Of a stretch of DNA of 37,723 bases, positions 13,551 through 32,876 are shown in pieces. Location of the stretch: contig CAPNGW010000002.1 of the NCBI GenBank assembly GCA_948665105.1, forward strand, positions 1 through 37,723, in the 5' to 3' direction. Positions within the stretch are counted from its first letter, which is position 1. The number at the start of each line of letters is the position of its first letter. Origin of the DNA: an uncultured Lachnospiraceae bacterium. GTDB lineage: Bacteria; Bacillota; Clostridia; Lachnospirales; Lachnospiraceae. Under the pieces are notes generated by a model. That model worked only from the letters and a program-made list of their open reading frames with translations. It ran no database searches and was not told where the DNA came from. The position numbers and the translations under genes were made by a program.

Positions 13551-13569
13551 AGCATCGTTAGGAGGAAAA

Positions 13570-14764: not shown

Positions 14765-16194
14765 ATGCTATTTAACTCATGGCAGTTTTTGCTTTTTATG
14801 ATAATTATTTTTGGCGGTTACTGGGCAATACGCCCCCGATACCGATACTTGTTCCTGCTGGCAGGAAGCTTAATATTTTATGCCAGCTGGGGGCCGGAGT
14901 ATCTCATCTATCTGGCGCTGACGGTGGCGCTGACCTATTGCTCTGGCTTACTGCTTGAAATTTTTGAGGGGGGGGGCAAACATTAGTTCTTATAACAACT
15001 GTTCTTCTGGCAGTTGGCGCACTGATGTTTTTTAAATACACAGGATTTTTGGCGGATATTTTATACAGAACATTTTCTGTGGAAGACCCTCAGACTGTCA
15101 GCATTGTGGCACCCATTGGATTTTCTTTTTATTTGTTTCAGGCTTTAGGCTATGTCATTGATGTTTACCGAAAGAAATATAAGCCGGAGAAGAACCTGGC
15201 CCGGTATGCCCTGTTTGTTTCCTTCTTTCCCCAGGTGATTTCAGGGCCCATTGGCCGGGGAAGGGATTTATTACCGCAATTTCATGGGAATGTAAGCTTT
15301 CAATACGAAGGGGCCATGTATGGAGTAAAGCAGTTTTGCGTGGGCCTGTTTAAAAAGATGGTAGTTTCCAATACCCTTGGAATGATGGTGGATTCCGTTT
15401 ATGGGAACGTCCATGGGTACAAGGGCTTTGTGCTGGCAACAGCAAGCATATTATATATGATACAAATTTACTGTGATTTTTCAGGATATTCCGATATGGC
15501 CATTGGCTGCGCCAGATTACTTGGAATAGAGCTTAAGGAGAACTTTAAGCTGCCGTATTTTTCAAAATCAATTCGTGAGTTCTGGAGACGCTGGCATATT
15601 TCCCTGTCCTCCTGGTTCAGAGACTATTTATACATCCCCCTGGGTGGAAACAGAAAGGGACAGGCACGAAAGAGGATAAATATCTTTTTGACATTTTTAG
15701 TCAGCGGATTATGGCACGGAGCCAATTACACCTATGTGGTGTGGGGAGGCCTTCACGGAATGCTGCAGGTCCTGGAGGACATTTTCATCGGAGGGAAGAT
15801 TAGAACAGGAAAAGGCTGCTGGCCTGTAAACCTCTTAAAGCACGCTTGCGTGCTATGCTTACTTCTTGTTACCTGGATTTTCTTCCGGGCGGAAAGTGTA
15901 AGCGATGCATTCTATGTATTGACCAATATGCTGTCCGGAATTGGAAAGGCAGGGTATTTGAAAGCAGGAATCAGTGGCCTGGGGTTGGACAAGGTTACCC
16001 TTGCCACCACTGTGGTCTCCATACTGGTCCTTGCAATCATAGACAGTATTTCTTATATATGTGGAGATGTCATTGAGAAAGTAAGTAATATGAAGCTGGT
16101 ACTGCGCTGGAGCATTTACATCATTTTTGTGATGATTATCATAGTGTTTACACCAGCCGTAGTGTCAACGGAATTTATATATTTCCAATTTTAG
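14765..16194 (+). pseudogene. MBOAT #1 (AlgI/DltB-like membrane-bound O-acyltransferase), frameshifted at a G9 tract (phase-OFF allele or homopolymer error)
   Basis: ORFs 14765-14986 and 15025-16194 are the N- and C-terminal parts of one MBOAT. The first part starts MLFNSWQFLLF; the second carries YCDFSGYSDMAIG, FWRRWHISLSSWFRDYLYIPLGG and GLWHGA. The downstream frame is already open from 14977 (QTLVLITTVLLAVGALMFFKYTGF). One extra G joins the two frames. Confidence 0.85.
14968..14976 (+). repeat. Poly-G tract (G9) at the MBOAT #1 frameshift site
   Basis: Directly counted. As sequenced it reads gag ggg ggg ggc aaa cat tag, which terminates. Confidence 0.95.
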
Positions 16195-16209
16195 TTCAGG
16201 GGGTGTGAT

Positions 16210-17142
16210 ATGAAGAAATTTGTGCTTAAGCTTGGACTTTTTGTTGTTTTGGTAGTTGGAATTTATCTGTCAGGTGTGGCGGCAGGCCAGCTCCTTCCGC
16301 CCCAGTACACCAATTCATTTAATGCTTCCCTGCTGGATAAGATGGAACGGGCAGAGGATATAGAGGAGCCTAAGCTGCTGGTGATTGGCGGAAGCAATAT
16401 CGTATTTGGCATAAACTCCCGGCTATTGGAGGAAGAATTCCAGATGCCGGTGGTGAATATGGGGGTAAATGCCGGTATGATGAGTGAATTTCAGCTGAAT
16501 GTGGCAAAGAAATATATCCGTGAAGGCGATATTGTTATTTTAGGCTTTGAGTATGGAGCATATACCTCGGAACAGATGAACCCCACAACCGCATGGTATA
16601 CCATAGAGAACTACCCGGAGCTTTGGAGGTGTGTGCCCAATATGGAGAAGCCGGCGTTATTACGTTTTTATCCGTACTATTTTGGAGAAAAACTGATTGC
16701 CTTTTTAAAGGGGGGAGACCAGATTCCCGACCAGCCGGAATATGTACGTACCAATTTTGACGAATACGGGGATTTTTCCTTTTACAGAAAAGAAAATGTC
16801 AGGAAAGATATTGCCCGGAATACGGTGATACAGGAGGCAGAGATAGAGGATAATGTAATTGAAAAAATAAATGAATTTTGTGAGGAAGCAGGAAAGAAGG
16901 GGGTAACTGTATACCTGACCTTTCCGGCGCTGGATGAGGAATGTGTGGCTTCAAGCCCACAGGATATAGAAGAATTTGAAAAGAAAATCAGAGAAAGTGT
17001 GGACTGCCCGGTTATTTCAAGGTGCCATACGTATATCATGGAGAGTAAATTTTTTTATGATACCAATTATCATCTAAATACAGAGGGAGCCAAAATCAGA
17101 ACAAAGCTTTTGATTTCGGATATGAGAGATAAAATATTTTGA
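16210..17142 (+). CDS. Membrane-anchored protein, candidate DltD/SGNH-like extracytoplasmic acyltransferase partner
   Basis: N-terminal signal-anchor (KLGLFVVLVVGIYLSGVAAG), an early GGSN block (LLVIGGSNIVFG) and a late Asp/His block (FFYDTNYHLNTEG). It lies immediately downstream of MBOAT #1. The motifs match DltD/SGNH only loosely. Confidence 0.45.
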   Translation: MKKFVLKLGLFVVLVVGIYLSGVAAGQLLPPQYTNSFNASLLDKMERAEDIEEPKLLVIGGSNIVFGINSRLLEEEFQMPVVNMGVNAGMMSEFQLNVAKKYIREGDIVILGFEYGAYTSEQMNPTTAWYTIENYPELWRCVPNMEKPALLRFYPYYFGEKLIAFLKGGDQIPDQPEYVRTNFDEYGDFSFYRKENVRKDIARNTVIQEAEIEDNVIEKINEFCEEAGKKGVTVYLTFPALDEECVASSPQDIEEFEKKIRESVDCPVISRCHTYIMESKFFYDTNYHLNTEGAKIRTKLLISDMRDKIF

Positions 17143-17168
17143 TAAAATAAAGGGAAGAATGACTTAAA

Positions 17169-18467
17169 ATGGGAAGAATAAAGCTTCTGGCAAAGGTAAT
17201 TGTTTTTGTTGCTATACTAATTTTTATCTGGAATTTGTTATGCTATACGCTTGTGGATGACACAAAGGCATTTTCCAGATTGACCTTACATGATTTTTCG
17301 GAGAATGAGGGGAAGATAGAGGTACTGTTCGTTGGACCAAGTACCAGTATGATGGGCATCGATACAGAGATTGCAGATGAGTGCTTTGGTGAAAATACCT
17401 TCAACGTGTCCACGACCTCCCAGACTCTGGACGGAACGTATTACCTGTGTAAGGAGGCCATTGAGAAAAATCCCAATTTGAAGCAAATCTATTTGAACGT
17501 ATCGCCGGGAATATTGCTAAGAAATGTTGGTGAGGTAATGCCCACTGCCATTATTACCGATTACTTAAGCAGCAATATGCGAAGGCTGGAATACGTGTGG
17601 GGAAGCGTAGAGCCTGAATATCGTGGAAACGTGCTTTTCCCCCTTATCCGCGACAGAGAGGACATATTTACCAGGAATCCTGTGGAAATTATAAAAGGAA
17701 AAGACAAGGCATACAGGAATTATGAGCCCTTCAGCCATAGGGGACTTGAATACAAGGAAAAGGGCTTTGTGACAGGAGTGAGGACGCCGGAGAATCAGGG
17801 CGGGCACGTTTACCGGACAGAAGGGATTGAAGAATTCCGGGAGGAGAATATCAATGAGGAAGAGGTCCGGTATTTAGAGAAAACCGTTGCGCTGTGCAGG
17901 GAGGAAGAGATTGAGCTAATCTTTTTTACAGCGCCGTATTCTGACTTCTATCTCCAGGGAATAAAAAACTATGATTCTGCCTCAAGGTGGATAAAAGCCT
18001 TTGCGGCAGAGCAGCATGTGGAATACTATGATTTTAATCTGGTAAGAAGGGACATACTGAATCTTCTGCCGGAGGATTTTCTGAATATGGACCACTTAAT
18101 GGAATCAGGGGCAGAGAAGTTTACAAGGGTGCTGGGAGGGGAATACCGCAGTACAAGCTATGAGGGTATTTTTTACGACAGCTACCAGGAGAAGATGAAG
18201 GAGGATAAGCAATGCATATATGGAATTGCCTGCCGGCTTTTGGAAGCCAGGAGGCTGGAATTTGAAGTATTGCTCAGCGATGATTACAAGGGGGACGGAT
18301 GGCAGTATTCCGTGGAGGTTCTGGGAACGGAGGGTGAACCCTTAGAGACAGTGATGGAAGGAAATGTAATCTGTCTTTCCCAGGGCTCTTTCAAAGGGAA
18401 ACGCATAAGTATTACAATTATGGATGGGCAGGGAGTCGTATTTCAAGGCAGGGAATTGGTCCCTTAA
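17169..18467 (+). CDS. Membrane-anchored protein, second candidate DltD/SGNH-like partner
   Basis: N-terminal TM anchor (LLAKVIVFVAILIFIWNLLCY), an early Ser block (VLFVGPSTSMMGID) and a late Asp-His block (FLNMDHLMESGAEKF). It has an extra C-terminal domain of about 100 aa. The function is inferred from context. Confidence 0.4.
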   Translation: MGRIKLLAKVIVFVAILIFIWNLLCYTLVDDTKAFSRLTLHDFSENEGKIEVLFVGPSTSMMGIDTEIADECFGENTFNVSTTSQTLDGTYYLCKEAIEKNPNLKQIYLNVSPGILLRNVGEVMPTAIITDYLSSNMRRLEYVWGSVEPEYRGNVLFPLIRDREDIFTRNPVEIIKGKDKAYRNYEPFSHRGLEYKEKGFVTGVRTPENQGGHVYRTEGIEEFREENINEEEVRYLEKTVALCREEEIELIFFTAPYSDFYLQGIKNYDSASRWIKAFAAEQHVEYYDFNLVRRDILNLLPEDFLNMDHLMESGAEKFTRVLGGEYRSTSYEGIFYDSYQEKMKEDKQCIYGIACRLLEARRLEFEVLLSDDYKGDGWQYSVEVLGTEGEPLETVMEGNVICLSQGSFKGKRISITIMDGQGVVFQGRELVP

Positions 18468-18533
18468 CCCTTCTGTGAGAAATATTGCATGGGCGAATGC
18501 TTGCCCCAAAGCGAATAGAAAAGAGGAAAAAAT

Positions 18534-19577
18534 ATGTTTAAGGAAAAGACACTTTTAATTACCGGAGGAACAGGTTCTTTTGGAAATGCGGTGCTGAACC
18601 GTTTTCTGAATACAGATGTAAAGGAAATCCGAATTTTCTCCAGAGACGAAAAGAAGCAGGATGATATGCGGCATGAGTATCAGTCAAAATATCCGGAGGC
18701 CAGCAACAAGATTAAATTCTTTATCGGCGATGTAAGGGATTTGGGCTCCGTCCAGAATGCCATGTATGGTGTGGACTATATTTTCCATGCGGCGGCATTG
18801 AAGCAGGTGCCTTCCTGTGAATTCTTCCCCCTGGAGGCAGTCAAAACCAATGTAATCGGAACAGACAATGTTTTGACGGCGGCAATTCAGGCAGGAGTAA
18901 AAAAGGTAATTTGCCTGTCCACAGATAAGGCGGCTTACCCCATCAATGCCATGGGAACATCAAAAGCCATGATGGAAAAGGTAATCGTGGCAAAATCCAG
19001 GACAGTCAACCCCGAAAAGACAAGCATCTGCTGTACCAGATATGGAAATGTCATGTGCTCCAGGGGCTCCGTGATTCCTCTGTTCATTGAACAGATACGT
19101 CAGGGGAATCCCATAACAGTGACTGAGCCCACAATGACCAGGTTTATCATGAGCCTGGAGGAGGCGGTGGAGCTGGTAATCTTTGCATTCCAAAATGCCC
19201 AGTCTGGTGATATAATGGTACAGAAGGCACCGGCCTGCACCATTGAGGTATTGGCCCAGGCGGTGGTGGAATTGTTCCATCCTGGCCACGAAATCAAGGT
19301 GATTGGAATTCGCCACGGTGAAAAAATGTATGAAACGCTTTTAACCAGCGAGGAATGTTCCCATGCCTCTGATTTGGGAGCATTTTACCGGGTGCCATGT
19401 GATAAGAGAGACTTAAATTACGATAAGTATTTTAAAGAAGGGGATAAGGAAAGAAGCGGATTATCTGAATTTAATTCCAACAATACACAGCGTCTTAACG
19501 TGGAGCAGGTGAAAGCGAAGCTGTTGGAACTGGCGTATATTCAGGAAGAATTAAAGGCCCAGGAGAAAAACAAATGA
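18534..19577 (+). CDS. fnlA: UDP-N-acetylglucosamine 4,6-dehydratase/5-epimerase (FnlA/CapE/WbjB)
   Basis: Classic N-terminus MFKEKTLLITGGTGSFGNAVLNRF..EIRIFSRDEKKQ, then MGTSKAMMEK (the M-x3-K variant typical of CapE) and RYGNVMCSRGSVIPLF. Confidence 0.9.
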   Translation: MFKEKTLLITGGTGSFGNAVLNRFLNTDVKEIRIFSRDEKKQDDMRHEYQSKYPEASNKIKFFIGDVRDLGSVQNAMYGVDYIFHAAALKQVPSCEFFPLEAVKTNVIGTDNVLTAAIQAGVKKVICLSTDKAAYPINAMGTSKAMMEKVIVAKSRTVNPEKTSICCTRYGNVMCSRGSVIPLFIEQIRQGNPITVTEPTMTRFIMSLEEAVELVIFAFQNAQSGDIMVQKAPACTIEVLAQAVVELFHPGHEIKVIGIRHGEKMYETLLTSEECSHASDLGAFYRVPCDKRDLNYDKYFKEGDKERSGLSEFNSNNTQRLNVEQVKAKLLELAYIQEELKAQEKNK

Positions 19578-20749
19578 AGATATTAGTTACGGGAGCAAAG
19601 GGGTTTATCGGTAAAAATTTAATAGCCACCTTAAATAATATCCGAACCGGGAAGGATAAAACCCGGGGCCTGTCGGATGATATATTGATTTACGAATATG
19701 ATATGGATTCCGACAGCAGTCTGTTGGACGCATATTGCTCCGGGTGTGATTTTGTGTTTCATCTTGCAGGTGTAAACAGACCCAGGGAAGAGCATGAATT
19801 TATGGAAGGAAACTTTGGCTTCACCTCCCTTTTGCTGGATACACTCAAAAAGCATAAAAATCAATGTCCAGTGATGATTTCATCCTCCATCCAGGCGTCC
19901 CTGGACAACCCATATGGGCGGAGCAAGAAAGCAGGGGAGGATTTGCTGCTTGCTTATGGAAGAGAGACCGGAGCGGCTGTGTATGTGTACCGCTTTTCCA
20001 ATGTATTTGGAAAATGGTGCCGGCCAAATTATAATTCTGTAATAGCCACCTTCTGCCATAATATTGCCCATGATTTACCCATACAGGTAAACGATAAGAG
20101 GGCTGTGCTGGAGCTGGTTTATATTGATGATTTGGTGGAAGAATTACTGGAGGCCTTAAAGGGGCAGCCCCATCTGGATGAGGACGGTTACGGCTTTGTG
20201 CCCACCGTACATACAGTCTCCCTGGGTGAGATTGTAGAGCTTCTCTATTCCTTCCGACAAAGCAGAGAGGAGCTTTGGGTACCGGATATGACAGAGGGTG
20301 GCCTTGAGAAGAAGCTTTATGCCACTTATTTAAGCTATTTACCAAAGGAGCAGTTTAGCTATCCGCTAACCATGCACAAGGATGAGCGGGGAAGCTTTAC
20401 GGAGATTCTTAAGACGGCAGACAGAGGCCAATTCTCTGTGAATATTTCAAAGCCCGGGATTACAAAGGGGGAGCACTGGCATCATACGAAGAATGAAAAA
20501 TTTGTTGTTGTCAGTGGAAAAGGCCGAATTCAATTTCGAAGGGTAGACAGCGATGAAATTATTGAATATACTGTAAATGGAGATGAAATTGTGGTGGTAG
20601 ATATTCCCACAGGCTACACACATAATATTATCAATGAGGGAGACACGGATTTGGTGACCTTTATGTGGTGTAATGAGTGTTTTAACCCGAAGAAGCCGGA
20701 TACTTATTTCTTAAAGGTCCAGGAGACGCCAGAGGAAAAGGGAAGATGA
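19574..20749 (+). CDS. fnlB: UDP-2-acetamido-2,6-dideoxy-L-talose reductase/epimerase (FnlB/CapF/WbjC)
   Basis: N-terminal SDR domain (KILVTGAKGFIGKNL) plus the C-terminal cupin domain (DERGSFTEIL...GITKGEHWHHTKNEKFVVVSGKG) characteristic of CapF. ATGA overlaps on both sides. Confidence 0.85.
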   Translation: MKILVTGAKGFIGKNLIATLNNIRTGKDKTRGLSDDILIYEYDMDSDSSLLDAYCSGCDFVFHLAGVNRPREEHEFMEGNFGFTSLLLDTLKKHKNQCPVMISSSIQASLDNPYGRSKKAGEDLLLAYGRETGAAVYVYRFSNVFGKWCRPNYNSVIATFCHNIAHDLPIQVNDKRAVLELVYIDDLVEELLEALKGQPHLDEDGYGFVPTVHTVSLGEIVELLYSFRQSREELWVPDMTEGGLEKKLYATYLSYLPKEQFSYPLTMHKDERGSFTEILKTADRGQFSVNISKPGITKGEHWHHTKNEKFVVVSGKGRIQFRRVDSDEIIEYTVNGDEIVVVDIPTGYTHNIINEGDTDLVTFMWCNECFNPKKPDTYFLKVQETPEEKGR

Positions 20750-21888
20750 ATAAATTAAAGGTAATGACAATTATAGGAACAAGGCCGGAAATTATCCGGC
20801 TGTCGGCAGTGATAAAAAAGTGCGACAAATATTTTCAGCAGATTTTGGTGCATACGGGCCAGAACTATGATTACAGCTTAAACCAGGTGTTTTTTGAAGA
20901 TTTACAATTAAGGGAGCCGGATTATTACCTGGATGCCGTGGGAGCAGATTTAGGTGAAACAATCGGAAATATTATTGCCAAAAGCTATAAGCTGATGGTT
21001 GAAGTCAGGCCGGACGCTTTGCTTATCCTGGGGGATACCAATAGCTGTCTCAGCGCCATCAGCGCAAAAAGGCTTCACATTCCCATCTTCCATATGGAAG
21101 CCGGCAACCGCTGCTTTGACGAGTGCCTGCCGGAGGAGACGAACCGCCGCATTGTGGACCATATTGCGGATGTGAATCTGTGCTACAGCGAGCATGCCAG
21201 ACGGTATTTGAACAGCGAAGGAACGGCAAAGGAGAGAACCTATGTTACCGGCTCACCCATGGCGGAAGTGCTGCGGAGCAATTTAGCAAAAATAGAGGCC
21301 AGCAATATTTTAGAAAAGCTGGGGCTTTCACATAAAAAATATATTCTTCTTTCCGCACATCGGGAGGAAAATATTGATACAGAGGAGAACTTTCAGCAGC
21401 TGTTTACGGCCATCAATGCCCTGGCAGAGAGCTATGATTTGCCCATCCTGTACTCCTGCCATCCAAGAAGCAAAAAGTTTCTTACGCAGCGGGAGTTTCA
21501 GCTGGACCATCGGGTGAGGATGCATGAGCCTCTGGGCTTTCACGACTATAACCATCTTCAGATGCACGCCTTTGCGGTGGTGAGTGACAGTGGAACACTT
21601 CCGGAGGAGTCAAGCTTTTTCGGCTCCATCGGACATACATTTCCGGCCGTTTGCATCCGTACCAGCACGGAACGTCCCGAGGCCCTGGATAAAGGAAACT
21701 TTGTGCTGGCCGGTATTGGGACCCAGCAGGTGCTTCAGGCTGTGAATCTTGCGGTGCAGATGGTGGAAAATGAGGATAGTGGTACACCGGTTCCGGATTA
21801 CGTGGAAGAAAATGTAAGTGGGAAAGTGATAAAAATTATACAGAGCTATGTGGGCATCGTAAATAAGATGGTGTGGAGGAAAGACTGA
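20746..21888 (+). CDS. fnlC: Non-hydrolysing UDP-N-acetylhexosamine 2-epimerase (FnlC/CapG/WbjD)
   Basis: MTIIGTRPEIIRLS, HTGQNYD, LGDTNS and HMEAGNRCFD are all 2-epimerase family signatures. This is the third gene of the fnlABC trio. Confidence 0.9.
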   Translation: MNKLKVMTIIGTRPEIIRLSAVIKKCDKYFQQILVHTGQNYDYSLNQVFFEDLQLREPDYYLDAVGADLGETIGNIIAKSYKLMVEVRPDALLILGDTNSCLSAISAKRLHIPIFHMEAGNRCFDECLPEETNRRIVDHIADVNLCYSEHARRYLNSEGTAKERTYVTGSPMAEVLRSNLAKIEASNILEKLGLSHKKYILLSAHREENIDTEENFQQLFTAINALAESYDLPILYSCHPRSKKFLTQREFQLDHRVRMHEPLGFHDYNHLQMHAFAVVSDSGTLPEESSFFGSIGHTFPAVCIRTSTERPEALDKGNFVLAGIGTQQVLQAVNLAVQMVENEDSGTPVPDYVEENVSGKVIKIIQSYVGIVNKMVWRKD

Positions 21889-23360
21889 TGGAAAATAGTC
21901 GGGAGATTTGGAGGCAGTCGGAGGAACGGGAAGTAAGAATAAGCGATATTCTGTGGAAAATAGTGGAGTCATGGCGGCTGGTTCTTGTGCTTGCGGTGGT
22001 GTTTGTGCTGCTGGTGACAGGGATATTCTACCTAAGGGCAATCAAAGCAGCCTCCGTGCCTGTTGAGCCCGTGGAGCCCGAAGAAGAGGAAGTCTTGACA
22101 GAGGAGGAAAGTCAGGAAGTTGTCCAGGTGCAAATCGGACAAGCACAGCTTTTGGAGCAGCGGGAATATCAAAAGAAATCCGTTTTGATGAATATCAATG
22201 CGTATGAAAAGAATGTAGTTACATTGGAATACTTTATAGATTCAACGCCTACAGAGAGTGGGAACGGCGATATATTGACCAATACCTACAGAAACTATAT
22301 TACGTCCAACAGGATTGTGGAGGATATAAGAGAGGAATGGAATTCTCCACTGAATGACGGATACATTGGGGAACTGATAGAATGTACGAATAGTGATATG
22401 AATATAAAGATGGGGTTTTTGTACGACGAAGACCAGTTAAGCAAATTAAAACGGAGCAGTGACAAATATTTTGTCGTTTCGGTGACGGGCGCTGACGCGT
22501 CCCAGGCAGAGCAGCTGGCGGATGCGGTGCAGAAGGCCCTGGAAATATATAGTGCCAGGATTGCCCAACAGCTGGGGGAGCAGCAGCTAAAGCCCCTGAA
22601 CCGTTATTCCAGTGTGGTACTGGATGAAAAGCTCATTGACAAGCAGCTAAATCTTCAGACCTCTATTAATGTGCAGCAAGACGCAATCGATAACGCAACC
22701 GAGGGGTTTAGTGAGTTACAACTGCGCATGCTGTATGGGGAGGATGAAGACCAGGAGGAGCCGGTCATTGAGGAGCAGATGCCAAGAAGGCCCGCCCTTA
22801 GTAAGAAAGCCATGGCTTTGGGACTTTTCACAGGAGTTTTCCTGGCTTGTATTTGGGTTGCTCTGCGCTATATGTTTGATCCCAGAATCAAGTCCTCCGA
22901 AGAATTACGGCGCATATACAATATGCGTGTGCTTGGCTTTCGGCAGATCGAAGGTACCTCCAGAAAACGTTTGTTTTCCGGCATCGATACCTGGATTGCA
23001 TCAAAAAAGGACAGGGATAAATTTACGCCGGAAAGCTTAAGCAATATGCTTGTGACGAATATGGCTCTGCTATTAAAAAGAGAGAATATAAGCCGTGTGT
23101 TTTTGGCCTCCGGGAGTGTGGATGAGGGCACAATGGAAGAAATAAATGAGATAATCGGACAACTGAAGGGCGAGGGAATTGAGGCTGTATATGAGAGCAA
23201 TATTGTTTCTGATGCGGCAGCGCTGAAATGTATGTCCGATATTGGAAACGCTGTTTTTGTGGTCAGAGAGAACCTTACCCATTACCAGGAGATGGAGAAA
23301 GCGCTGTTGCTGTGTGAAGCCCAGGAGGTGAGAGTTCTTGGGGGAATTGTGGTGCAGTGA
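21888..23360 (+). CDS. Wzz/CpsC-like polysaccharide co-polymerase fused to a degenerate CpsD-like (P-loop-less) C-terminal domain
   Basis: ATG 21888 overlaps the upstream TGA; the tracked start at 21873 is GTG. TM1 is WRLVLVLAVVFVLLVTGIFYL, followed by a long extracytoplasmic region and TM2 MALGLFTGVFLACIWVALRYMF. The tail of about 165 aa lacks a GxxGxGKS/T Walker A and any Tyr cluster. Confidence 0.7.
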   Translation: MENSREIWRQSEEREVRISDILWKIVESWRLVLVLAVVFVLLVTGIFYLRAIKAASVPVEPVEPEEEEVLTEEESQEVVQVQIGQAQLLEQREYQKKSVLMNINAYEKNVVTLEYFIDSTPTESGNGDILTNTYRNYITSNRIVEDIREEWNSPLNDGYIGELIECTNSDMNIKMGFLYDEDQLSKLKRSSDKYFVVSVTGADASQAEQLADAVQKALEIYSARIAQQLGEQQLKPLNRYSSVVLDEKLIDKQLNLQTSINVQQDAIDNATEGFSELQLRMLYGEDEDQEEPVIEEQMPRRPALSKKAMALGLFTGVFLACIWVALRYMFDPRIKSSEELRRIYNMRVLGFRQIEGTSRKRLFSGIDTWIASKKDRDKFTPESLSNMLVTNMALLLKRENISRVFLASGSVDEGTMEEINEIIGQLKGEGIEAVYESNIVSDAAALKCMSDIGNAVFVVRENLTHYQEMEKALLLCEAQEVRVLGGIVVQ

Positions 23361-23382
23361 TGAGGAATAGGGGAGAAGAAAA

Positions 23383-24894
23383 ATGCAGATATCAATTTTA
23401 GATTATTTGGAAAATTCTGCAAGCCGCTTTCCGGAAAAAATTGTATTTTCGGAGGAAAAGAAACAGATTTCCTATGGCCAATTAGAAAAAACGGCAAAAG
23501 CAGTGGGAAGCAGTATTATAAAAACGGCACAGGGGGTATACAAGCGGCCAATCGTAGTGTTCCTTGACAAGGGAATCGATGTGCTGATTTCCTTTATGGG
23601 CATCGTTTACAGTGGAAATTTCTATACCCCCATAGATGTTCATATGCCGGTTTCCAGAATAAATAAGATTTTAGAGACTCTGCAGCCGGAAATGATGATT
23701 ACGGATGAGGAGCATCTTCACCTCGTAAAAGAAACGGCGTTTGCCAAACACGTATTACTGTTTCAGGAGGCGGCGCAGGCAGAGATATTGACAGAGCAGC
23801 TTGAAAATATCAGGGAGAGAATGACAGATACGGATTTGCTGTACGTACTGTTTACATCGGGCTCCACAGGAACACCCAAGGGGGTTACAATCTGCCACAA
23901 GTCAGTGATTGACTATACGGATTATATCACAGATAAATTTGATATTACTGAAAAGGAAATTTTTGGAAATCAGGCACCTTTTTATTTTGACAATTCCATT
24001 TTAGATATTTATTGCACCTTAAAGGCCGGGGCAACCATGCATATCATTCCAAAGGAGCTGTTTGGACAGCCGGTACTGCTTTTGGAATATTTAAAGAACC
24101 AGCGGATAAATATTATTTTCTGGGTTCCTTCCGCCCTTATCATGGTCTCCAAATTAAAGGCTTTTCGGAATGTAGATATCTCGGAAACTTTGCGTAAGGT
24201 ACTGTTCTGTGGAGAGGTAATGCCAAATAAGCAGTTGAATATATGGCGAAAATATTTGCCGCATGTATTGTATGCCAATTTGTATGGCCCCACCGAGATT
24301 ACAGACGCATGTACCTGTTATGTGGTAGACCGGAAATTTGAGGACAATGAGCCTTTGCCCATTGGCACTCCCATGGGAAATACCGGGATTCTTGTGCTGA
24401 ATGAGGGGGATGAGCTGGTGAAGGGTGACGAGATTGGCGAGCTCTGCGTAAGGGGGACCTGCCTGTCTCCTGGCTATTATAATAATCCCGAAAAAACCAG
24501 GGAGGCGTTCATACAAAACCCCTTGAATAAAGCTTATCTGGAATGGATTTATCGAACAGGAGATCTGGTGCGGTATAACGAGTACGGGGAACTGATTTAT
24601 CTGTCCAGAAAGGATTTCCAGATTAAGCATATGGGGCACCGAATCGAACTGGGAGAAATTGAGAATGCTGTTTCCTCCATGGAGGGGATGTCCTCCTGCT
24701 GCTGCTTGTATGATGAAAAGAGAAGCAAGATTGTTCTCTTTATAGAAGAGGATTTAGAGAAGGAAACCATTATAAATGGTATTAAGAATCTGGTGCCGGA
24801 CTATATGTACCCGGGTAAGGTGATTAAGCTGGATAAGCTGCCGATGAATGCCAATGGAAAAACAGACAGGGTAGCATTGAAACAATACTTATAG
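23383..24894 (+). CDS. DltA-like amino-acid adenylating enzyme (carrier-protein ligase), module 1
   Basis: Adenylation cores LFTSGSTGTPKGV, NQAPFYFDNSILDIY, FCGEVMP, LYGPTEITD, YRTGDLVRY..GELIYLSRKDFQIKHMGHRIELGEIE and NANGKTDR. It is collinear with B. subtilis DltA as I recall it. Confidence 0.85.
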   Translation: MQISILDYLENSASRFPEKIVFSEEKKQISYGQLEKTAKAVGSSIIKTAQGVYKRPIVVFLDKGIDVLISFMGIVYSGNFYTPIDVHMPVSRINKILETLQPEMMITDEEHLHLVKETAFAKHVLLFQEAAQAEILTEQLENIRERMTDTDLLYVLFTSGSTGTPKGVTICHKSVIDYTDYITDKFDITEKEIFGNQAPFYFDNSILDIYCTLKAGATMHIIPKELFGQPVLLLEYLKNQRINIIFWVPSALIMVSKLKAFRNVDISETLRKVLFCGEVMPNKQLNIWRKYLPHVLYANLYGPTEITDACTCYVVDRKFEDNEPLPIGTPMGNTGILVLNEGDELVKGDEIGELCVRGTCLSPGYYNNPEKTREAFIQNPLNKAYLEWIYRTGDLVRYNEYGELIYLSRKDFQIKHMGHRIELGEIENAVSSMEGMSSCCCLYDEKRSKIVLFIEEDLEKETIINGIKNLVPDYMYPGKVIKLDKLPMNANGKTDRVALKQYL

Positions 24895-24920
24895 ATATCA
24901 GGTAAGAAAGGCAGAAAAAA

Positions 24921-25154
24921 ATGGAAGAAAGAATTTTGGAAATTTTAGGAGAGGTGAATGAAGAAATCCTCTCATACGAGGGAGACCGGCTCACCAAGGA
25001 CAGTATTATAGATTCTTTTGAAATTATCAATATTGTTTCAGAGCTGGAGGAGGAATTTGATATTGAAATTGATGCGAAATATGTCGTTCATGAAAACTTT
25101 GAGAACAAGGACACAATTATCGCACTGGTAAAGAGGCTGGTGGAAGAGCAGTAG
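24921..25154 (+). CDS. DltC-like acyl/aminoacyl carrier protein, module 1
   Basis: 77 aa and acidic, with the phosphopantetheine-attachment context SIIDSFEIINIV (compare DltC LLDSFGTVELL). It lies between the adenylating enzyme and the MBOAT. Confidence 0.8.
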   Translation: MEERILEILGEVNEEILSYEGDRLTKDSIIDSFEIINIVSELEEEFDIEIDAKYVVHENFENKDTIIALVKRLVEEQ

Positions 25155-25167
25155 ATGAGGTTTCAAA

Positions 25168-26727
25168 ATGCAGTTTGCGTCTGTTGAATTTGGGATATTC
25201 TTTTTGCTGGTTTTAGGAATATATTATCTGGTTAATCAAAGACGAAGATGGATGGTATTGCTGGCTGCCAGTATGGTGTTCTGTGGACATTCTTCCCCAT
25301 GGCATTTCATTTACTTGATGATAGCAATCAGTGTCAGCTTTTTTGCCGCTAAAATCATTGAGAAGCTCCATGAGGATGAGGCGAGAGAGCTTTTTCATAA
25401 GAAGGATATCAGCAGGGAGGAAAAAAAGAAGCTTAAGAATCACTTTAAGAAGAAAAAGCAATGGGTCATAGGGGTCCTGCTTTTCCTTTTGCTGACAGTT
25501 ATTCTCGCACTCAAGCTGGCAAAAAAGCTTTCTCTCATTCAGGAAGGCGCATTGGGCATCCTGATTCCTTTGGGAATTTCTTATTATACATTGGTCATGA
25601 TTGGCTATTGCATAGATGTTTACAGGGAAAAATATCCGGCAGATTCCAATTTTTTTAAGTTCACACTTACAATTATGTATTTTCCCTCATTGCTCCAGGG
25701 ACCAATCAACCGCGTGGATGCGTTAAGGGAGCAATTATTTCAGGAGATACACTGGAATTATTTTGAGGTAAAAGCCGGATTGCAGAGAGCGGTCTGGGGA
25801 TTGTTTAAAAAGCTGGTGATTGCAGACAGGCTGGCAATTTTTGTGAATCAGATTTACGGTGATTTTGGTAATCAGGCAGGAAGCTTTTTGGCAGTCGGAA
25901 CCATTGCATATGCAATTCAGTTGTATGCAGATTTCTCTGGATACATGGATATCGCCATTGGCATCAGCAGAACCTTTGGCGTAAAGCTGGCAGAGAATTT
26001 TAAATGTCCGTACTTTTCTGTTTCAATCAGTGAATTTTGGAAAAAATGGCATATAACCTTGGGCGACTGGTTCAAGGATTACCTGATGTTTCCCTTTGCA
26101 ATGTCTCAGACAGGAAGAAACATAGGGAAGCAAGGACAGAGGATATTTGGAAAGCAGGGAGGCAAAAAGCTTACACTATACCTTGCAACTATGCTGGTGT
26201 GGTTTTCCACCGGCTTATGGCATGGGATTGAGTGGAACTTTATTACCTGGGGGGGGGTATACGGCGTAATAATGGTACTCTCTGATTTTCTGGACCCCCT
26301 TTTTGAAAAGATAAGGAATCGGTGGGGAATCACTAAGGAAAAACGTTGGTTTCGATTTTTTTGCTATATCAGAACCTTTTCCATCGTGTGCTTGGCGGAC
26401 ATTCTGTTCCGGGCGCCAGGATTGAGAGAGGCAGTTATAATCATAAAAAAGATTTTATTTGAATTCCAGGTAAGTGCAATAGAAAACACTGAAATTTGGC
26501 TTTTACAGCTTACAGAGCAGGACTATGTGGTTTTGGTGATATGTTTGATTGCCGGGCTTTTGGTGCATATACTGCATCAAAAGAGAAAAAGCGTTTCGGT
26601 CATATTAGAGCAAAGAAATGTAGTGACCAGATGGATGGTTTATTTCGGGATTACCTGGATTATCATTTTGTTTGGGATATATGGAAGCGGGTATTCGTTG
26701 GAAGGCTTTGCTTATATGCAGTTTTAG
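25168..26727 (+). CDS. MBOAT #2 (DltB/AlgI-like), intact
   Basis: 519 aa and polytopic, with YADFSGYMDIAIG, FWKKWHITLGDWFKDYLMFPF, GLWHGIEW and the C-terminal ...GFAYMQF-stop. It contains an in-frame G9 tract. Confidence 0.9.
   Translation: MQFASVEFGIFFLLVLGIYYLVNQRRRWMVLLAASMVFCGHSSPWHFIYLMIAISVSFFAAKIIEKLHEDEARELFHKKDISREEKKKLKNHFKKKKQWVIGVLLFLLLTVILALKLAKKLSLIQEGALGILIPLGISYYTLVMIGYCIDVYREKYPADSNFFKFTLTIMYFPSLLQGPINRVDALREQLFQEIHWNYFEVKAGLQRAVWGLFKKLVIADRLAIFVNQIYGDFGNQAGSFLAVGTIAYAIQLYADFSGYMDIAIGISRTFGVKLAENFKCPYFSVSISEFWKKWHITLGDWFKDYLMFPFAMSQTGRNIGKQGQRIFGKQGGKKLTLYLATMLVWFSTGLWHGIEWNFITWGGVYGVIMVLSDFLDPLFEKIRNRWGITKEKRWFRFFCYIRTFSIVCLADILFRAPGLREAVIIIKKILFEFQVSAIENTEIWLLQLTEQDYVVLVICLIAGLLVHILHQKRKSVSVILEQRNVVTRWMVYFGITWIIILFGIYGSGYSLEGFAYMQF
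26249..26257 (+). repeat. Poly-G tract (G9), in frame within MBOAT #2
   Basis: Directly counted: tgg ggg ggg gta encodes W-G-G-V. Confidence 0.95.
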
Positions 26728-26743
26728 GTGAATAGGATATCAA

Positions 26744-27535
26744 ATGATGATAAGGATAGAAAACGGCGAGGAATTTTATTCAATATTAAAAGCGTTTAAG
26801 AAGAAGAACAGGAGAATAATATCTAATTTTTTGATGTTTCCGGAAGAGCTTGAAAAGCTGATGAGAGAAAAGAAAGTTTTTTACATGGAGGGGGAGGCAG
26901 GGATTAGCCTTTTTGTGGAGTATGAAGCACACTTTTCTTTTTACTTTTTCTACAAAGGATTGGATGTACCCATAGAAGTAAGAAGATTGGATAAGCCGGT
27001 TGCCTGCGAGATATTTACGAAGAATCAGTTGGAAGAAGGGATAGATGAGAGATTTATAAAAGAAAATTTTCGACAAATAGGTATTTATAAAAGATATATC
27101 TTAAAAAGTGAAAATATTCATGATGTAAAAAGTGGGAACTCCGTTAGGAAAAAAGCAGGAGCAATACATGAAGTCTGGGATGGCATAAAAGAAAACTTTA
27201 ATGTGTTGACGGACCATCTGGTATCTCAGGATGAAATGGAAGAGAAATATGCGGATAAACAATTTTTTTATTATAATCAGGCAAATAGAATAGAAGGTGC
27301 GTTGATTCATGAAACGAAAAATAAAAAATCTGTATTGGAATATATCTTTGTATATCCGGAATTTCGAAAAAAAGGTGTTGCCAGGGAATTGCTGGAAACC
27401 TGGCTTGCCACTTATTTTCAAGCAATAAATAAATTTGAATTATGGGTAAGTACAGAAAATAGGGAGGCTATAGAATTGTACAAAAGATATGGATTCCAGG
27501 AGGATGGCCTTATAAAATATGTTTATTTGATATAA
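26744..27535 (+). CDS. GNAT-family N-acetyltransferase with an uncharacterised N-terminal domain
   Basis: C-terminal GNAT motif A, IFVYPEFRKKGVARELLETWL, followed by AIELYKRYGFQEDG. The gene is very AT-rich. Confidence 0.7.
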   Translation: MMIRIENGEEFYSILKAFKKKNRRIISNFLMFPEELEKLMREKKVFYMEGEAGISLFVEYEAHFSFYFFYKGLDVPIEVRRLDKPVACEIFTKNQLEEGIDERFIKENFRQIGIYKRYILKSENIHDVKSGNSVRKKAGAIHEVWDGIKENFNVLTDHLVSQDEMEEKYADKQFFYYNQANRIEGALIHETKNKKSVLEYIFVYPEFRKKGVARELLETWLATYFQAINKFELWVSTENREAIELYKRYGFQEDGLIKYVYLI

Positions 27536-27603
27536 TTTTTTAGTATAGAGCCAGGTTTATAGTGAGAGCAGGAATAAAGCAGAATGAAAGGTAAAGAGGA
27601 ACG

Positions 27604-29418
27604 ATGGGGCTTTTGATATTATTGGTATTTTTGCTGGCAGTGCCTGGGGTAATTGGAATGGCGGGTGAGAAAATACTAATTAACAGACGAAGAATTAGCA
27701 TGGCCGAGAGTTATCTATGGGGAAACATTATTCTCTGGGCGCTTTTTCAGATACTGTGTGTGCCCATGGCTATGCTTGGAATGAGCTTTAGCATTTTTTC
27801 CGTGATATTTCTGATAATTATCATTGCTTTGACCATGCTTGCTTTGATTAAATACGGCCAGTATATGATTCTGAAAGTGGTTATGCTGAAAGAAGAAATA
27901 AGGAGATTTGGCTGGAAGGAAATCCTGCTGATTACTATAATCGCAGCGCAGATTCTTATATTGGTGTTTGGGGTAACTTATGAATCAAGTGCAGATGATG
28001 CTTCTTATATAGCACTGTCTCTGGACACACTTTCTACAGACCGCATAGCACAGCTGGATCCATATACAGGGCTTGAGGGAGCCATATCGTTAAAACGTAT
28101 ATTGACCTCCTGGAATTTTTATCTCTCATTTTTAGGAAAAATTTCAGGTATTCATGTGGCTGCCATAGCACATACAATTCTGCCAATACTACTTGTACCT
28201 ATGGCGTATATGGCATATCTTTTAATAGGTAGGGCGATTTTCGGAAAGAACAGGAAAAGGACGGTTCAGTTTTTGCTATGGCTGAGCCTGCTGTTTACCT
28301 TCGGCGCTTATTCTATCTATACGGTAACATATCGCCTGACGATTGTGGTCTGGCAGGGAAAAGCTGTGATGGTAACCATTATATTGCCGTTTTTATTTTG
28401 TTTTTTAATCAAAATGAAAGAGATAAAATTAAAGAAAACGGTATGCCTGTTCCTGATTATGGCGTCGGCCTGTGCCATGAGCCTGATGGGCGTTGGACTT
28501 TCTGTTTTTATGGTTATTGTTTCAGCAGTTGCCAAGCTAAAAAGGCATAAAGTAAAGACAGTGGTACCTTTACTGCTGACAGGCATATTGATTTCCATGG
28601 TGGCATTTTACTATATGTGGATGAGAGGGGAAGGGATTTTGTTTTCCCCTAAGTATATTCAGAAGCTGTTCCCCCAGGCTGTGACTATGATAAGAGAGGC
28701 GTTTTCTCTTTACTGGAATGGGACTAAAATACAATGGCTGTATCTTGGTGGATTTTTGATTATATGTTGGCGGGGAAGAAAAAAAAGGAATGTACGATTT
28801 CTCATAAAGTATGCACTGGTTAGTTACATAATTATTTGGAATCCGGTATTTTATTACTTTGCCTTTGTATTTTTAAAAAATGCAAGCACAGGGGTACGGC
28901 TGATTTATACAATGTTTCCAGAGGTGTATATGGCTCTGGCTATGACATTTTTGACTTGCGCATTTCGGGACAGGAAGGGGAGTATGATTGCAGGAGGGGT
29001 TGGTGGCTTGTATATTTTGCTGACAGGGACCATATATCCTAAGGTGGGACATCCTGTGCTTGCAGAGAATACTTATAAGCTGCCCAATGAAGCTGTTCAA
29101 GTGTGCCAGATTCTAAATGAAGATTCAGAAGAACCACCCCTTGTGATGGCAGATGGCGGATTGGTTCTGTATCTGCGCCAATATAGCAGCCGCGTGAAAA
29201 TGGTATATGGCAGATATGGTTATATATATCAGGGAGAACAAATTTTTCAATTAATAAATGAACAGCGGATAACCAAAGAAGAAATATGGACATTTCTGGA
29301 AGAAAATAACTGTGATTATGTGGTATGGAGAAAAAATGATGCAGATATAGAGGCGTTCATACAACTGGGGGGAGAGCTGATTGAAGAAACACAGAATTAT
29401 GCTATCATAAAAAGATAA
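27604..29418 (+). CDS. Uncharacterised polytopic membrane protein (more than 10 TM) with a C-terminal soluble domain; possibly GT-C-like
   Basis: 604-aa ORF with many hydrophobic helices and an acidic loop motif, YESSADDASY, after the early TMs. The soluble tail of about 130 aa starts near residue 470. No family is confidently recognised. Confidence 0.65.
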   Translation: MGLLILLVFLLAVPGVIGMAGEKILINRRRISMAESYLWGNIILWALFQILCVPMAMLGMSFSIFSVIFLIIIIALTMLALIKYGQYMILKVVMLKEEIRRFGWKEILLITIIAAQILILVFGVTYESSADDASYIALSLDTLSTDRIAQLDPYTGLEGAISLKRILTSWNFYLSFLGKISGIHVAAIAHTILPILLVPMAYMAYLLIGRAIFGKNRKRTVQFLLWLSLLFTFGAYSIYTVTYRLTIVVWQGKAVMVTIILPFLFCFLIKMKEIKLKKTVCLFLIMASACAMSLMGVGLSVFMVIVSAVAKLKRHKVKTVVPLLLTGILISMVAFYYMWMRGEGILFSPKYIQKLFPQAVTMIREAFSLYWNGTKIQWLYLGGFLIICWRGRKKRNVRFLIKYALVSYIIIWNPVFYYFAFVFLKNASTGVRLIYTMFPEVYMALAMTFLTCAFRDRKGSMIAGGVGGLYILLTGTIYPKVGHPVLAENTYKLPNEAVQVCQILNEDSEEPPLVMADGGLVLYLRQYSSRVKMVYGRYGYIYQGEQIFQLINEQRITKEEIWTFLEENNCDYVVWRKNDADIEAFIQLGGELIEETQNYAIIKR

Positions 29419-29443
29419 TTTTATGCAGCGGAGGATACCAAAG

Positions 29444-31020
29444 ATGTCTTACACATCATTACTTTTCTTTATATTTGTTATTGCACTGATTTTTGTCTAC
29501 TATATAGTGCCAAAGAGCTGGCAGTGGAAGGTACTGCTCATTGCAAATATCATATTCTATGCCTCCAATGGCGTAATACCACTTGTTTTCATAACAGCAA
29601 CCACTCTTTTGACATGGTTTGCAGCACTTTTATTGGAAAAGAAGGACCTCTGCCAGAGCAGGGAGCTGGAAGGGGAACCCCTTTCAAGGGAAGAGAAAAA
29701 CCAAATCAAGGTAGCGTATAAGAGACAGAAAAAAGGAATTCTCATACCTGTGCTCTTAATGGTATTTGGACTTCTTGCATATGCCAAATATACAAATTTT
29801 GGTATTGGTATTATTAATGGTATTGCAGGAGTGGACATGATACAAGTACAAAGTATCATCGTCCCCCTGGGAATCTCTTTTTACACTTTTATGTCCGTAG
29901 GATATATCCTGGATATCTACTGGAAAAAATATCCTGCGGAGCATAATTTCTTTAAGTATGCAACATTTACAACGTTTTTCCCCCATGTGGTACAAGGCCC
30001 CATTGGGCGCTATAATAAGCTGGCTCCGGAATTTTTCAAAGGAAGGCATTATGATTTTCGTCAAATGGTGTCTGGCTTTGAGTTATTTTTATGGGGACTT
30101 TTCCAAAAGCTAGTAATTGCTGACCGTCTCGGTATTTTTGTTGATAACGTTTTTGCAGACTACCAAAATACCGGGGGGGGGTATTTCTATTAACGCTGGC
30201 GTTTTATTCCATTCAAACGTATGCTGATTTCTCCGGCTGTATGGATATCTGCCGGGGGATTTCTGAGATTCTTGGAATCCATCTTGAGAAGAACTTCAAT
30301 CATCCGTATTTTGCAAAAACCATACCGGAGTTCTGGCAGAGATGGCATATCTCTATGGGAGCATGGTTTAAGGATTACCTGTTTCTACCCATTTCCAATT
30401 CATCCTTTGTAAAAAAATCAAGTAAAAAATTAGGAGTGAAATATGGCTCCGGTGTCAGAAAAAAATTTGCGGCGAGCTTTCCTGTTGCCATTGTCTGGCT
30501 GGCCACCGGTGTCTGGCATGGCGCCGGATGGACCTTTATTTTCTGGGGATTGTTCCATGGGTGCCTGACAATCGGAGGTACGGTTTTTTCTGAAAGAATC
30601 TCCAGGCTCACATCCGTATTACATATTCCAACAAAAGCATTTTGGTGGAAATTATTTCAGATGTCCAGAACCTTTTTCCTGTGCTGTATAGGAAGAATTT
30701 TCTTTCGGGCTCCGGATTTGCAGGTGGCGGGGCATATTATAAAGAAAATAACCACAGATTTGCAATATCAATCACTGTTTAGTGGACACATATTTCAATT
30801 CGGTTTGGGCAGAGAGAATATGATGATAGCCTTGGCCTCCATTGGTATTTTATGGAGCGTCAGCATGCTGCAGGAAAGATGCTCTATTCGGGAAAAGGTG
30901 GCGAAGCAGAATATTGTAATGCGGTACGCATTGCTTTACATCGCGATTTTTTCTATTTTGATTTTAGGTATCTATGGGCCAGGTTATGATACATCAACTT
31001 TTATTTACAATGCATTTTAA
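29444..31020 (+). pseudogene. MBOAT #3 (DltB/AlgI-like), frameshifted at a G9 tract (phase-OFF allele or homopolymer error)
   Basis: ORFs 29423-30193 and 30241-31020 are two halves of one MBOAT. The likely start is ATG 29444 (MSYTSLLFF) after a GGAGGA RBS. The downstream frame is open from 30181 (VFLLTLAFYSIQTYADFSGCMDICRG). Later motifs are FWQRWHISMGAWFKDYLFLP and GVWHGAGW. One extra G joins the two frames. Confidence 0.85.
30173..30181 (+). repeat. Poly-G tract (G9) at the MBOAT #3 frameshift site
   Basis: Directly counted. As sequenced it reads acc ggg ggg ggg tat ttc tat taa, which terminates. Confidence 0.95.
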
Positions 31021-31035
31021 AGGAGGAACAAGAGA

Positions 31036-31254
31036 ATGGAACAGATTGTACAAATTATCAGAGAGATTTGCCCCACCATTGGTGAGCTGGAGGGAGTGAA
31101 GCTTGTCACAGACAAAATCATTGATTCCGTGGAGCTGGTGCAAATCATTTCTGACCTGGAAGAGGCGTTTCAGGTGGAAATTGATATGGAGGATATTGTG
31201 CCGGAAAATTTTGATACGGTAGAAGCGATTTGGAAGCTGATACAGCAGCTTTAG
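31036..31254 (+). CDS. Acyl carrier protein, module 2
   Basis: 72 aa and acidic, with the Ser attachment context KIIDSVELVQIISDLEEAF and a strong AGGAGG RBS upstream. Confidence 0.8.
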   Translation: MEQIVQIIREICPTIGELEGVKLVTDKIIDSVELVQIISDLEEAFQVEIDMEDIVPENFDTVEAIWKLIQQL

Positions 31255-32718: not shown

Positions 32719-32793
32719 GAGGTAAGAATGGGGAATATAGGGGATTTAATGGAAGCCACTGTTCCATAGAACAATAAAAGATAAAAAGAGAAT

Positions 32794-32822
32794 TTGACTT
32801 TCCATCGCGTATTATGTATAAT
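32794..32822 (+). promoter_or_regulatory. Near-consensus sigma-A promoter-like element
   Basis: TTGACT (32794-32799), a 17-nt spacer, then TATAAT (32817-32822). It lies upstream of the terminator palindrome and about 135 nt before the ABC operon start. Confidence 0.4.
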
Positions 32823-32834
32823 AAGTTCAATCAA

Positions 32835-32876
32835 GCAAAAATAAAGCGCCATTTTGAACACGCGCTTTATTTTTGC
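32835..32876 (+). terminator. Rho-independent (bidirectional-type) terminator ending the polysaccharide operon
   Basis: Perfect 15-bp inverted repeat, GCAAAAATAAAGCGC (32835-32849) with GCGCTTTATTTTTGC (32862-32876), around a 12-nt loop. The GC core is flanked by A-rich 5' and T-rich 3' arms. Confidence 0.65.

Follow-up and report, generated by a model that had tools for sequence, protein, structure and literature searches.

The question raised by this locus is whether three acyltransferases of the MBOAT family, termed MBOAT1, MBOAT2 and MBOAT3 here, each carry a built-in tyrosine that shuttles acyl groups to a partner enzyme. The locus is part of a 37,723-nucleotide stretch of contig CAPNGW010000002.1 (assembly GCA_948665105.1), the whole of which was analyzed and is called the window below. 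It is a surface-polysaccharide locus of the Wzx/Wzy type with glycosyltransferases, from an uncultured, Lachnospiraceae-like member of the gut Clostridia. An initial annotation of the sequence had pointed out that the three proteins end in the same F-x-Y-x-x-F hexapeptide. It had proposed that each protein carries its own shuttle tyrosine, needs no separate DltX-like protein and hands the acyl group to an SGNH-like transferase. We read the locus as three MBOAT–SGNH modules for O-acylation with a fused tyrosine shuttle, with donors that can be predicted for each module, and with a poly-G tract that would switch each MBOAT gene. The probability of this reading is, in our estimate, roughly 0.8. 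The MBOAT, ligase, carrier-protein, partner, GNAT and DUF6077 genes of the window described below all lie on the plus strand.

Translation of the last six codons gave FIYFQF for MBOAT1 (16174–16191; 16174–16194 with the stop codon), FAYMQF for MBOAT2 (26707–26724; 26707–26727) and FIYNAF for MBOAT3 (31000–31017; 31000–31020), exactly as annotated. These three proteins are the only ones with a strict F.Y..F ending among the 1079 six-frame stop-to-stop segments of at least 20 residues in the window. In the 75,442 residues of the six-frame translation, the pattern itself is found 12 times, a frequency of about 1.6e-4 per position. Overall identity among the three paralogs is 30–35%. Over the 100 alignment columns preceding the motif, the pairwise identities are 17/95, 18/95 and 28/98 (18–29%), and the earlier description of the flanking sequences as otherwise divergent was therefore fair. 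A G-x-G-Y motif upstream of the tail is common to MBOAT2 and MBOAT3. A database search showed F-x-Y-x-x-F-COOH at the end of all of the 120 best MBOAT2 homologs, with F, Y and F invariant. These homologs are 35–41% identical to MBOAT2 (one is 86% identical) and come mostly from Lachnospiraceae or other Clostridia. The tail is thus a real motif under purifying selection. Conservation among homologs was one of the checks that the initial annotation had named. The six-frame scan of the window found no small DltX-like open reading frame (ORF) ending in the motif, in keeping with the proposal that none is needed; it is the MBOATs themselves that carry the motif, as a fusion.

The motif has been described before. 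FXYXXF, which is the same as F-x-Y-x-x-F, is the "acyl shuttle" motif of DltX (Anderson, Schultz, Walker, Clarke et al., J Biol Chem 2025, PMC12148441). The same work describes non-Dlt bacterial MBOATs whose own C-terminus is this hexapeptide, borne on two transmembrane (TM) helices absent from DltB. PatA auto-acetylates the motif tyrosine, the labelling is lost in Tyr-to-Phe and His-to-Ala variants, and acetyl-FIYANF serves PatB as a donor (PMC12148441). DltX tails of FLYFGF (PMC11035591) and FIYNEF (PMC13653941) are also on record. What the initial annotation had stated about DltX and about fused motifs was accurate, and so was its definition of the motif. A fused shuttle tyrosine has been established in the literature since 2023–2025 and is ordinary for this enzyme class, and the core point of the annotation is not new.

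In the window, MBOAT2 (25168–26727; 519 amino acids) is the sole MBOAT that is in frame. His352 is its conserved catalytic histidine, and Tyr516 is the tyrosine of FAYMQF. The Pfam MBOAT model (PF03062, cut-off 27 bits) scores 102 bits with MBOAT1, 52 with MBOAT2 and 42.7 with MBOAT3 after the repair described below. The histidines of the R-W-H and W-H-G motifs are present in all three proteins, and the family alignment shows no variation at H295 and H352 of MBOAT2. DltB (PDB IDs: 6bug, 8jem) is matched by a profile built from the MBOAT2 family with E values of 9e-39 to about 1e-38, and the match covers profile positions 133–418 alone. The DltB-like core of MBOAT2 ends near residue 418–430.

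The AlphaFold model of MBOAT2 has a predicted local distance difference test (pLDDT) score of 81.9. It shows extra helices at residues 450–471 and 485–502, followed by a tail (505–519) with a pLDDT below 50. The top Foldseek matches of the model are DltB 8jem and 6bug (E about 1e-11; target-normalised TM-score 0.69–0.74). According to this model, MBOAT2 bears its motif on two predicted additional TM helices beyond the DltB core. The tests for the extra helices and the fold were made on the MBOAT2 model, to which MBOAT1 and MBOAT3 are linked by colinearity. The loop ahead of the last MBOAT helix is rich in lysine and arginine (HQKRKSVSVILEQRNVVTR). By the positive-inside rule, this sequence would place the tail outside the cell. 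The invariant motif, the two extra helices and the published work (PMC12148441) all support the proposal of a fused shuttle tyrosine. The tail of MBOAT3 also gives a weak match to the Pfam DltX model (E 9e-5, 22.3 bits), which is under the cut-off of 25.

A sub-clade of related MBOATs from eight loci has the tail V-D-(P/M/L/T)-(I/M)-Y-(A/G)-(G/S/Q)-F. A ligase adjoins every MBOAT of this sub-clade, and in most of its loci a carrier protein does too. Its members retain the Tyr and the last Phe, so that in the published FXYXXF it is the first Phe that is not universal.

The three paralogs bear the motif, but not all of them are intact, a point that the initial annotation had overlooked. MBOAT1 (14765–16194) is sequenced as a 73-residue ORF (14765–14986) and a 389-residue ORF (15025–16194), with a frameshift in a G9 run at 14968–14976. 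MBOAT3 (29423–31020) is sequenced as a 256-residue ORF (29423–30193) and a 259-residue ORF (30241–31020), with a frameshift in a G9 run at 30173–30181. One G added to each tract restores a protein that is colinear with MBOAT2. The repaired MBOAT1 has its full length of 476 residues; the repaired MBOAT3 has 532 residues, or 525 from the second Met. The ORFs of both genes have no defects besides the tract. As sequenced, the two MBOAT3 fragments each fall under the Pfam MBOAT cut-off (15.8 and 26.4 bits). Both genes are thus OFF here and would be in frame with G10. MBOAT2 also has a G9 tract (26249–26257), which is in frame (ON) and encodes W-G-G directly after the catalytic histidine. The position of the tract differs in each of the three proteins.

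Three further genes of the capsule locus contain G tracts on their coding strand, at 13752–13761 (G10), 4511–4518 (G8) and 8352–8358 (G7). The G runs of the window are therefore 10, 9, 9, 9, 8 and 7 bases long, and every one is on the coding strand; the longest C run is at most 5. Four runs reach nine or more G where about 0.6 would be expected, and the distribution of run lengths has a second mode at 9–10. Under a first-order Markov model, some 2 G/C runs of at least eight would be expected, and the enrichment at this length is weak. Our argument thus rests on the runs of at least nine and on variation between samples.

This variation is seen in all three genes (L numbers are our labels for contigs and loci other than the window). 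The MBOAT1 tract is G11 in L086, inside a 15-kb contig, and G13 in L090. The N-terminal fragments in the 90% cluster of MBOAT1 end in at least five different ways. Intact 476-residue forms of MBOAT1 found elsewhere read EIFEGGGQTLV, exactly as the repair predicted. The MBOAT2 tract is G8 in L098, where the gene is split into 366 and 151 residues, and contig L087 ends within this tract. The window allele of MBOAT3, with the same flanks, is G10 and intact in L094. A sister allele is G10 and intact, or G9 or G8 and split, depending on the sample. A divergent allele in L096 has different flanks, an in-frame G9 and an intact gene. Intact 525-residue MBOAT3 orthologs are present in L001, L094, L097 and L098; in the 90% cluster of MBOAT3, 525-residue forms occur on about 20 contigs and fragments of 259/260 residues on about 25. 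The repaired MBOAT1 and MBOAT3 were not found verbatim in the protein collection searched, in which near-identical intact forms are present. The coexistence of intact and split genes with tracts of G8 to G13 suggests slipped-strand phase variation, in which case the switching would be reversible. A search of a limited body of literature for homopolymer phase variation in Lachnospiraceae returned nothing directly relevant.

The donor side of the modules, with its ligases and carrier proteins, had also been missed by the initial annotation. LIG1 (23383–24894) is encoded upstream of PCP1 and MBOAT2. It is a stand-alone amino acid adenylation enzyme of the nonribosomal peptide synthetase (NRPS) type with a Pfam AMP-binding domain. 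Its score with the NCBIfam AA-adenyl-dom model is 346 bits, above the cut-off of 317; with two DltA models it scores 338 and 329.5 bits, and fails their cut-offs of 476 and 559.85. The top PDB matches are the adenylation domains (A-domains) of LgrA and GrsA, followed by DltA. The A4 motif F-D-N-S (F-D-x-S) is legible in the sequence. By these sequence comparisons, LIG1 is DltA-like but is not a DltA ortholog, and its nearest relatives are NRPS A-domains. PCP1 (24921–25154), directly before MBOAT2, is a 77-residue carrier protein with an I-D-S phosphopantetheine-site motif; its matches to PP-binding and DltC are weak and lie under the cut-offs. Small ORFs homologous to PCP1 are found 0–30 bp upstream of an MBOAT gene in many loci.

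The MBOAT3 gene is followed by PCP2 (31036–31254), a 72-residue carrier protein with the same I-D-S motif. PCP2 matches Pfam PP-binding (26.8 bits; cut-off 20.8) and the NCBIfam models for acyl carrier protein and DltC. LIG2 (31264–32718) is an adenylating enzyme that resembles acyl/aryl-CoA ligases, with the Pfam domains AMP-binding and AMP-binding_C. Its top NCBIfam matches are fatty-acid and MenE ligases, and its top PDB matches are 4-coumarate-CoA ligase, MenE and FadD. Judged by these matches, LIG2 is an activator of carboxylic acids and not of the amino acid type. The NCBIfam Dlt equivalog models were missed throughout the window, both for DltB (154 bits against 375) and for DltC (27 against 68, and 17 against 52). 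No ligase or carrier gene adjoins MBOAT1.

To place these modules, we surveyed 80 species-level genomes with 84 complete related MBOATs, and neighbors within 4 kb were considered. The best match in these genomes is 36–37% identical; close relatives were retrieved by exact-protein look-ups. A ligase or a carrier protein lies nearby in 42 of the 84 cases. For 24 MBOATs that bear the motif, a ligase, a carrier protein and an SGNH partner are all present, usually in the order LIG-PCP-MBOAT-SGNH. FIYFQF, the tail of MBOAT1, is the commonest tail among related MBOATs that have no ligase or carrier nearby (28 of 42). In four of the surveyed genomes, the ligases and MBOATs are well under the Dlt equivalog cut-offs, and the DltD models do not match the partner proteins from three of these four. 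The carrier-fed loci are thus not canonical dlt operons. MBOAT2 and MBOAT3, each of which adjoins a ligase and a carrier protein, therefore unite a donor in the style of Dlt with a shuttle fused to the enzyme. Carrier-fed MBOATs with a fused shuttle are a separate and widespread class. A limited literature search for carrier-protein-linked MBOATs in polysaccharide loci found nothing directly relevant.

The initial annotation had named two proteins as SGNH-like transferases, and this assignment is supported. The 16210 protein (16210–17142; 310 residues) has an N-terminal TM helix, and its Ser62 and His288 are shared by the whole family. The 17169 protein (17169–18467; 432 residues) also has an N-terminal TM helix and carries Ser58, His309 and Asn306. 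Neither protein has a Pfam or NCBIfam match. For the 16210 protein, a single-sequence search of the PDB gave noise alone, and the A3 profile found nothing significant among PDB sequences. Its AlphaFold model (pLDDT 96.4) shows an SGNH fold. Foldseek matches this model to YxiM, DltD (PDB ID: 6o93, E 1.1e-4; PDB ID: 7dxm), SGNH esterases and PatB (PDB ID: 7tjb). The family has 4775 representatives at E ≤1e-3, and 9 of 56 members match Pfam ALGX. The families of the two proteins are homologous to each other (hhalign probability 98.8%, E 4e-17, 291 columns). A profile of 56 members of the 17169 family matches a GDSL protein (PDB ID: 4iyj, E 2.8e-5) and DltD (PDB ID: 6pfx, E 0.007) in the PDB, and these alignments cover SGNH blocks I and V. 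The block-I position of this family is Ser or Cys (Cys in 12 of 56), and His309 is invariant. The acidic residue of block V is at −4 from the His in the 16210 protein; the Asn of 17169 is at −3. Profiles, hhalign, AlphaFold and Foldseek taken together support the two proteins as SGNH/DltD/AlgX-like.

Further partners are seen in L001, a close relative with 98% nucleotide identity across the MBOAT3 module. There, a 321-residue protein (11574–12539) is encoded after MBOAT2 and a 440-residue protein (18540–19862) after LIG2. Both are SGNH-like, and the 17169 protein is 29–30% identical to them.

From these elements, a route for the acyl group can be proposed. A cytoplasmic thioester donor would enter the funnel of the MBOAT, and the conserved MBOAT histidine would catalyze acyl transfer from this donor to the tail tyrosine on the outer face, by analogy with DltX and PatA. 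The flexible tail would then bring the acyl-Tyr ester to the Ser of a membrane-anchored SGNH-like partner (the 16210 or 17169 protein), which would esterify a hydroxyl of the polysaccharide made by the Wzx/Wzy system. The donors probably differ between the modules. The FIYFQF tail of MBOAT1, together with the lack of an adjoining ligase or carrier, suggests acetyl-CoA as its probable donor, as for AlgI and PatA. The donor of MBOAT2 is probably aminoacyl-S-PCP1, loaded by the NRPS-type LIG1. For MBOAT3 it is probably acyl-S-PCP2, onto which the CoA-ligase-like LIG2 would load a carboxylic acyl group of a non-amino kind. The lengths of the poly-G tracts would decide which decorations are made; in the window as sequenced, just the aminoacyl module (MBOAT2) reads through.

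Several observations weigh against this proposal. The acylation chemistry assigned to the window proteins is drawn from homology. MBOAT1 and MBOAT3 are out of frame here and may thus be dead in this strain. The Pfam DltX model does not match the tails of MBOAT1 and MBOAT2. The ligases and carrier proteins could also act elsewhere, for example in the building of an acylated sugar in the cytoplasm. On the side of the partners, the 17169 protein has Asn306 where the Asp of block V stands in 47 of 56 family members. There are two SGNH-like genes for three MBOATs, both downstream of MBOAT1. The initial annotation was right about the nature of the partners but had overlooked this mismatch in number, and the pairing of partners with MBOATs is our suggestion. 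Both of the partner genes of L001 are cleanly absent from the corresponding places in the window (26727–26744 and 32718–32958). The tracts themselves also call for caution: homopolymer lengths called from short reads are error-prone and several contigs break exactly at tracts (Logan contig L082 ends inside the MBOAT3 tract), so part of the length variation could be technical.

This last point bears on an explanation of wider scope, in which MBOAT1 and MBOAT3 are decaying pseudogenes, or products of homopolymer errors in sequencing or assembly, and not phase-variable switches at all. Each defect is a single base missing from a long G run, which is the typical sequencing error, and contigs of several samples end exactly at the tracts. 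Contigs L082–L085 (including ERR7159397 and GCA_948634295.1) are identical to the window where compared and are probably not independent of it. Several observations speak against errors or decay. The tract lies at a different place in each paralog and is kept in divergent alleles such as that of L096. Long contigs of different samples carry one and the same MBOAT3 allele with internal tracts of G8, G9 or G10, and the G11 form of MBOAT1 lies inside a contig of 15 kb. Intact and split forms are about equal over some 45 contigs, the ORFs are free of other defects, and G runs of at least nine are over-represented on the coding strand alone. We consider this explanation unlikely, although it is the alternative that we take most seriously.

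It is a good deal less probable that LIG1-PCP1-MBOAT2 is a canonical Dlt operon for the D-alanylation of teichoic acid in which DltX has become fused to DltB. The best NCBIfam names for the three proteins are indeed DltA, DltC and DltB, and the same four-gene cassette occurs in many Clostridia genomes. The scores tell against it, with DltA at 329 bits against 560, DltB at 154 against 375 and DltC at 27 against 68, and they are alike in four other genomes. The partner proteins match no DltD model, and LIG1 is nearer to NRPS A-domains than to DltA. The cassette also sits inside a locus of Wzx, Wzy and glycosyltransferase genes, and is present or absent as a unit between closely related strains. 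The shared tail could, finally, be sequence inherited by the paralogs, or a signal for structure, membrane insertion or partner docking, with no covalent acyl-Tyr role. This would fit the low confidence of the tail in the AlphaFold model and the sub-clade with P, M, L or T in place of the first Phe, where part of the motif is dispensable; the acyl-Tyr role of the window enzymes is likewise argued from homologs. We nevertheless regard it as very improbable, because F, Y and F are invariant in 120 of 120 homologs next to columns with 18–29% identity, because the Tyr is retained even in the variant tails, and because published studies of DltX, as well as the Tyr-to-Phe and acetyl-peptide experiments with PatA and PatB, support the covalent role (PMC12148441).

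We therefore return to the three MBOAT–SGNH modules with a fused shuttle, which can be compared with known systems. PatA/PatB O-acetylates the peptidoglycan of Gram-negative bacteria, and AlgI/AlgJ/AlgX acts on alginate. These two systems, WssH (cellulose) and PatA1/PatB1 (secondary cell wall polysaccharide) are alike in having an MBOAT with a C-terminal two-helix FXYXXF extension. The window shares with the PatA/PatB type a separate membrane-anchored SGNH-like transferase, a polysaccharide acceptor and the lack of a DltX microprotein. MBOAT1 and the 16210 protein closely fit the PatA/PatB or AlgI/AlgJ pattern, and we class the pair as a new member of that group. The other two, MBOAT2 and MBOAT3, differ from the PatA/AlgI class as described in PMC12148441, since they adjoin an adenylating ligase and a carrier protein; a carrier protein is said to be lacking in non-Dlt MBOAT/SGNH pathways (PMC12148441). 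A further difference from the PatA/PatB type is that the SGNH partners of the window come from uncurated families that have no Pfam or NCBIfam match.

The resemblance to the Dlt pathway (DltX-DltA-DltB-DltC-DltD, teichoic acid D-alanylation) lies in a small carrier protein loaded by an adenylating enzyme, in an MBOAT whose DltB-like core passes the acyl group through the membrane to the Tyr in FXYXXF, and in a DltD-like SGNH protein as the last step. Unlike in Dlt, the motif is fused to the MBOAT and is not on a separate microprotein, the gene order is A-C-B-D, and the genes lie in a capsule/exopolysaccharide locus. LIG2 is not an amino acid ligase, and all components score under the Dlt equivalog cut-offs. 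The tracts resemble those of the poly-G contingency genes of Campylobacter jejuni and Neisseria, in that they are intragenic coding-strand runs of G8–G13 whose length sets the frame and whose ON and OFF alleles coexist. Background on such genes for capsule and glycan modification in these bacteria is given in PMC8355987 and PMC3417653. The differences are that the host here is a metagenome-assembled genome of Gram-positive-type gut Clostridia and that the switched genes encode MBOAT acyltransferases.

The newer part of these results is the carrier-fed class with a fused shuttle, together with poly-G tracts in three acyltransferase genes, and we find it moderately interesting. Many Clostridia encode MBOATs that join a Dlt-style donor to a fused shuttle of the AlgI/PatA type. 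The carrier-fed MBOATs keep their fused FXYXXF; carrier-protein donors thus do not require that DltX be split off. For gut anaerobes, carrier-fed systems predict capsules with ester-linked amino acid and organic acid decorations, which are essentially uncharted. Each of the three acyltransferase genes holds a poly-G tract, and both ON and OFF alleles circulate in metagenomes. This suggests contingency switching of the Campylobacter kind in a commensal Firmicute, and such switching of capsule chemistry would matter for the evasion of phages and of the immune system in the gut. A bolder model is possible, and we put it forward tentatively, with the odds somewhat against it. In this model, the capsule is acylated in a phase-variable, combinatorial manner, and three independent poly-G switches for acetyl, aminoacyl and organic-acyl esters would give up to 8 surface states. 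The carrier-fed MBOATs, as a large class, would add the aminoacyl and organic-acyl groups and would be an evolutionary intermediate between AlgI/PatA and Dlt, and the SGNH partners would be shared or swapped between modules.

The modules also vary as units. Strains differ in their combinations of modules, and whole MBOAT modules are present or absent (L096, L099, L100). A gene for a GNAT acetyltransferase (26744–27535; 263 residues, with a C-terminal GNAT domain in Pfam) travels with LIG1-PCP1-MBOAT2 and is also downstream of the MBOAT2 module in L001 and L016. One purely speculative role for this protein would be N-acetylation of the aminoacyl group. A gene for a polytopic membrane protein of 604 residues (27604–29418; Pfam DUF6077, 230 bits) separates the MBOAT2 module from the MBOAT3 module. 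In L044 and L050, too, a member of the DUF6077 family is encoded between two MBOATs; in L001 the gene is split in two.

The same locus contains a polysaccharide pyruvyl transferase gene (9817–10965). A gene for an FrhB/FdhB-like Fe–S protein (13495–14763) holds the G10 tract at 13752–13761, which is in frame. The presence of the pyruvyl transferase and the FrhB/FdhB-like protein suggests that the capsule may also be pyruvylated.

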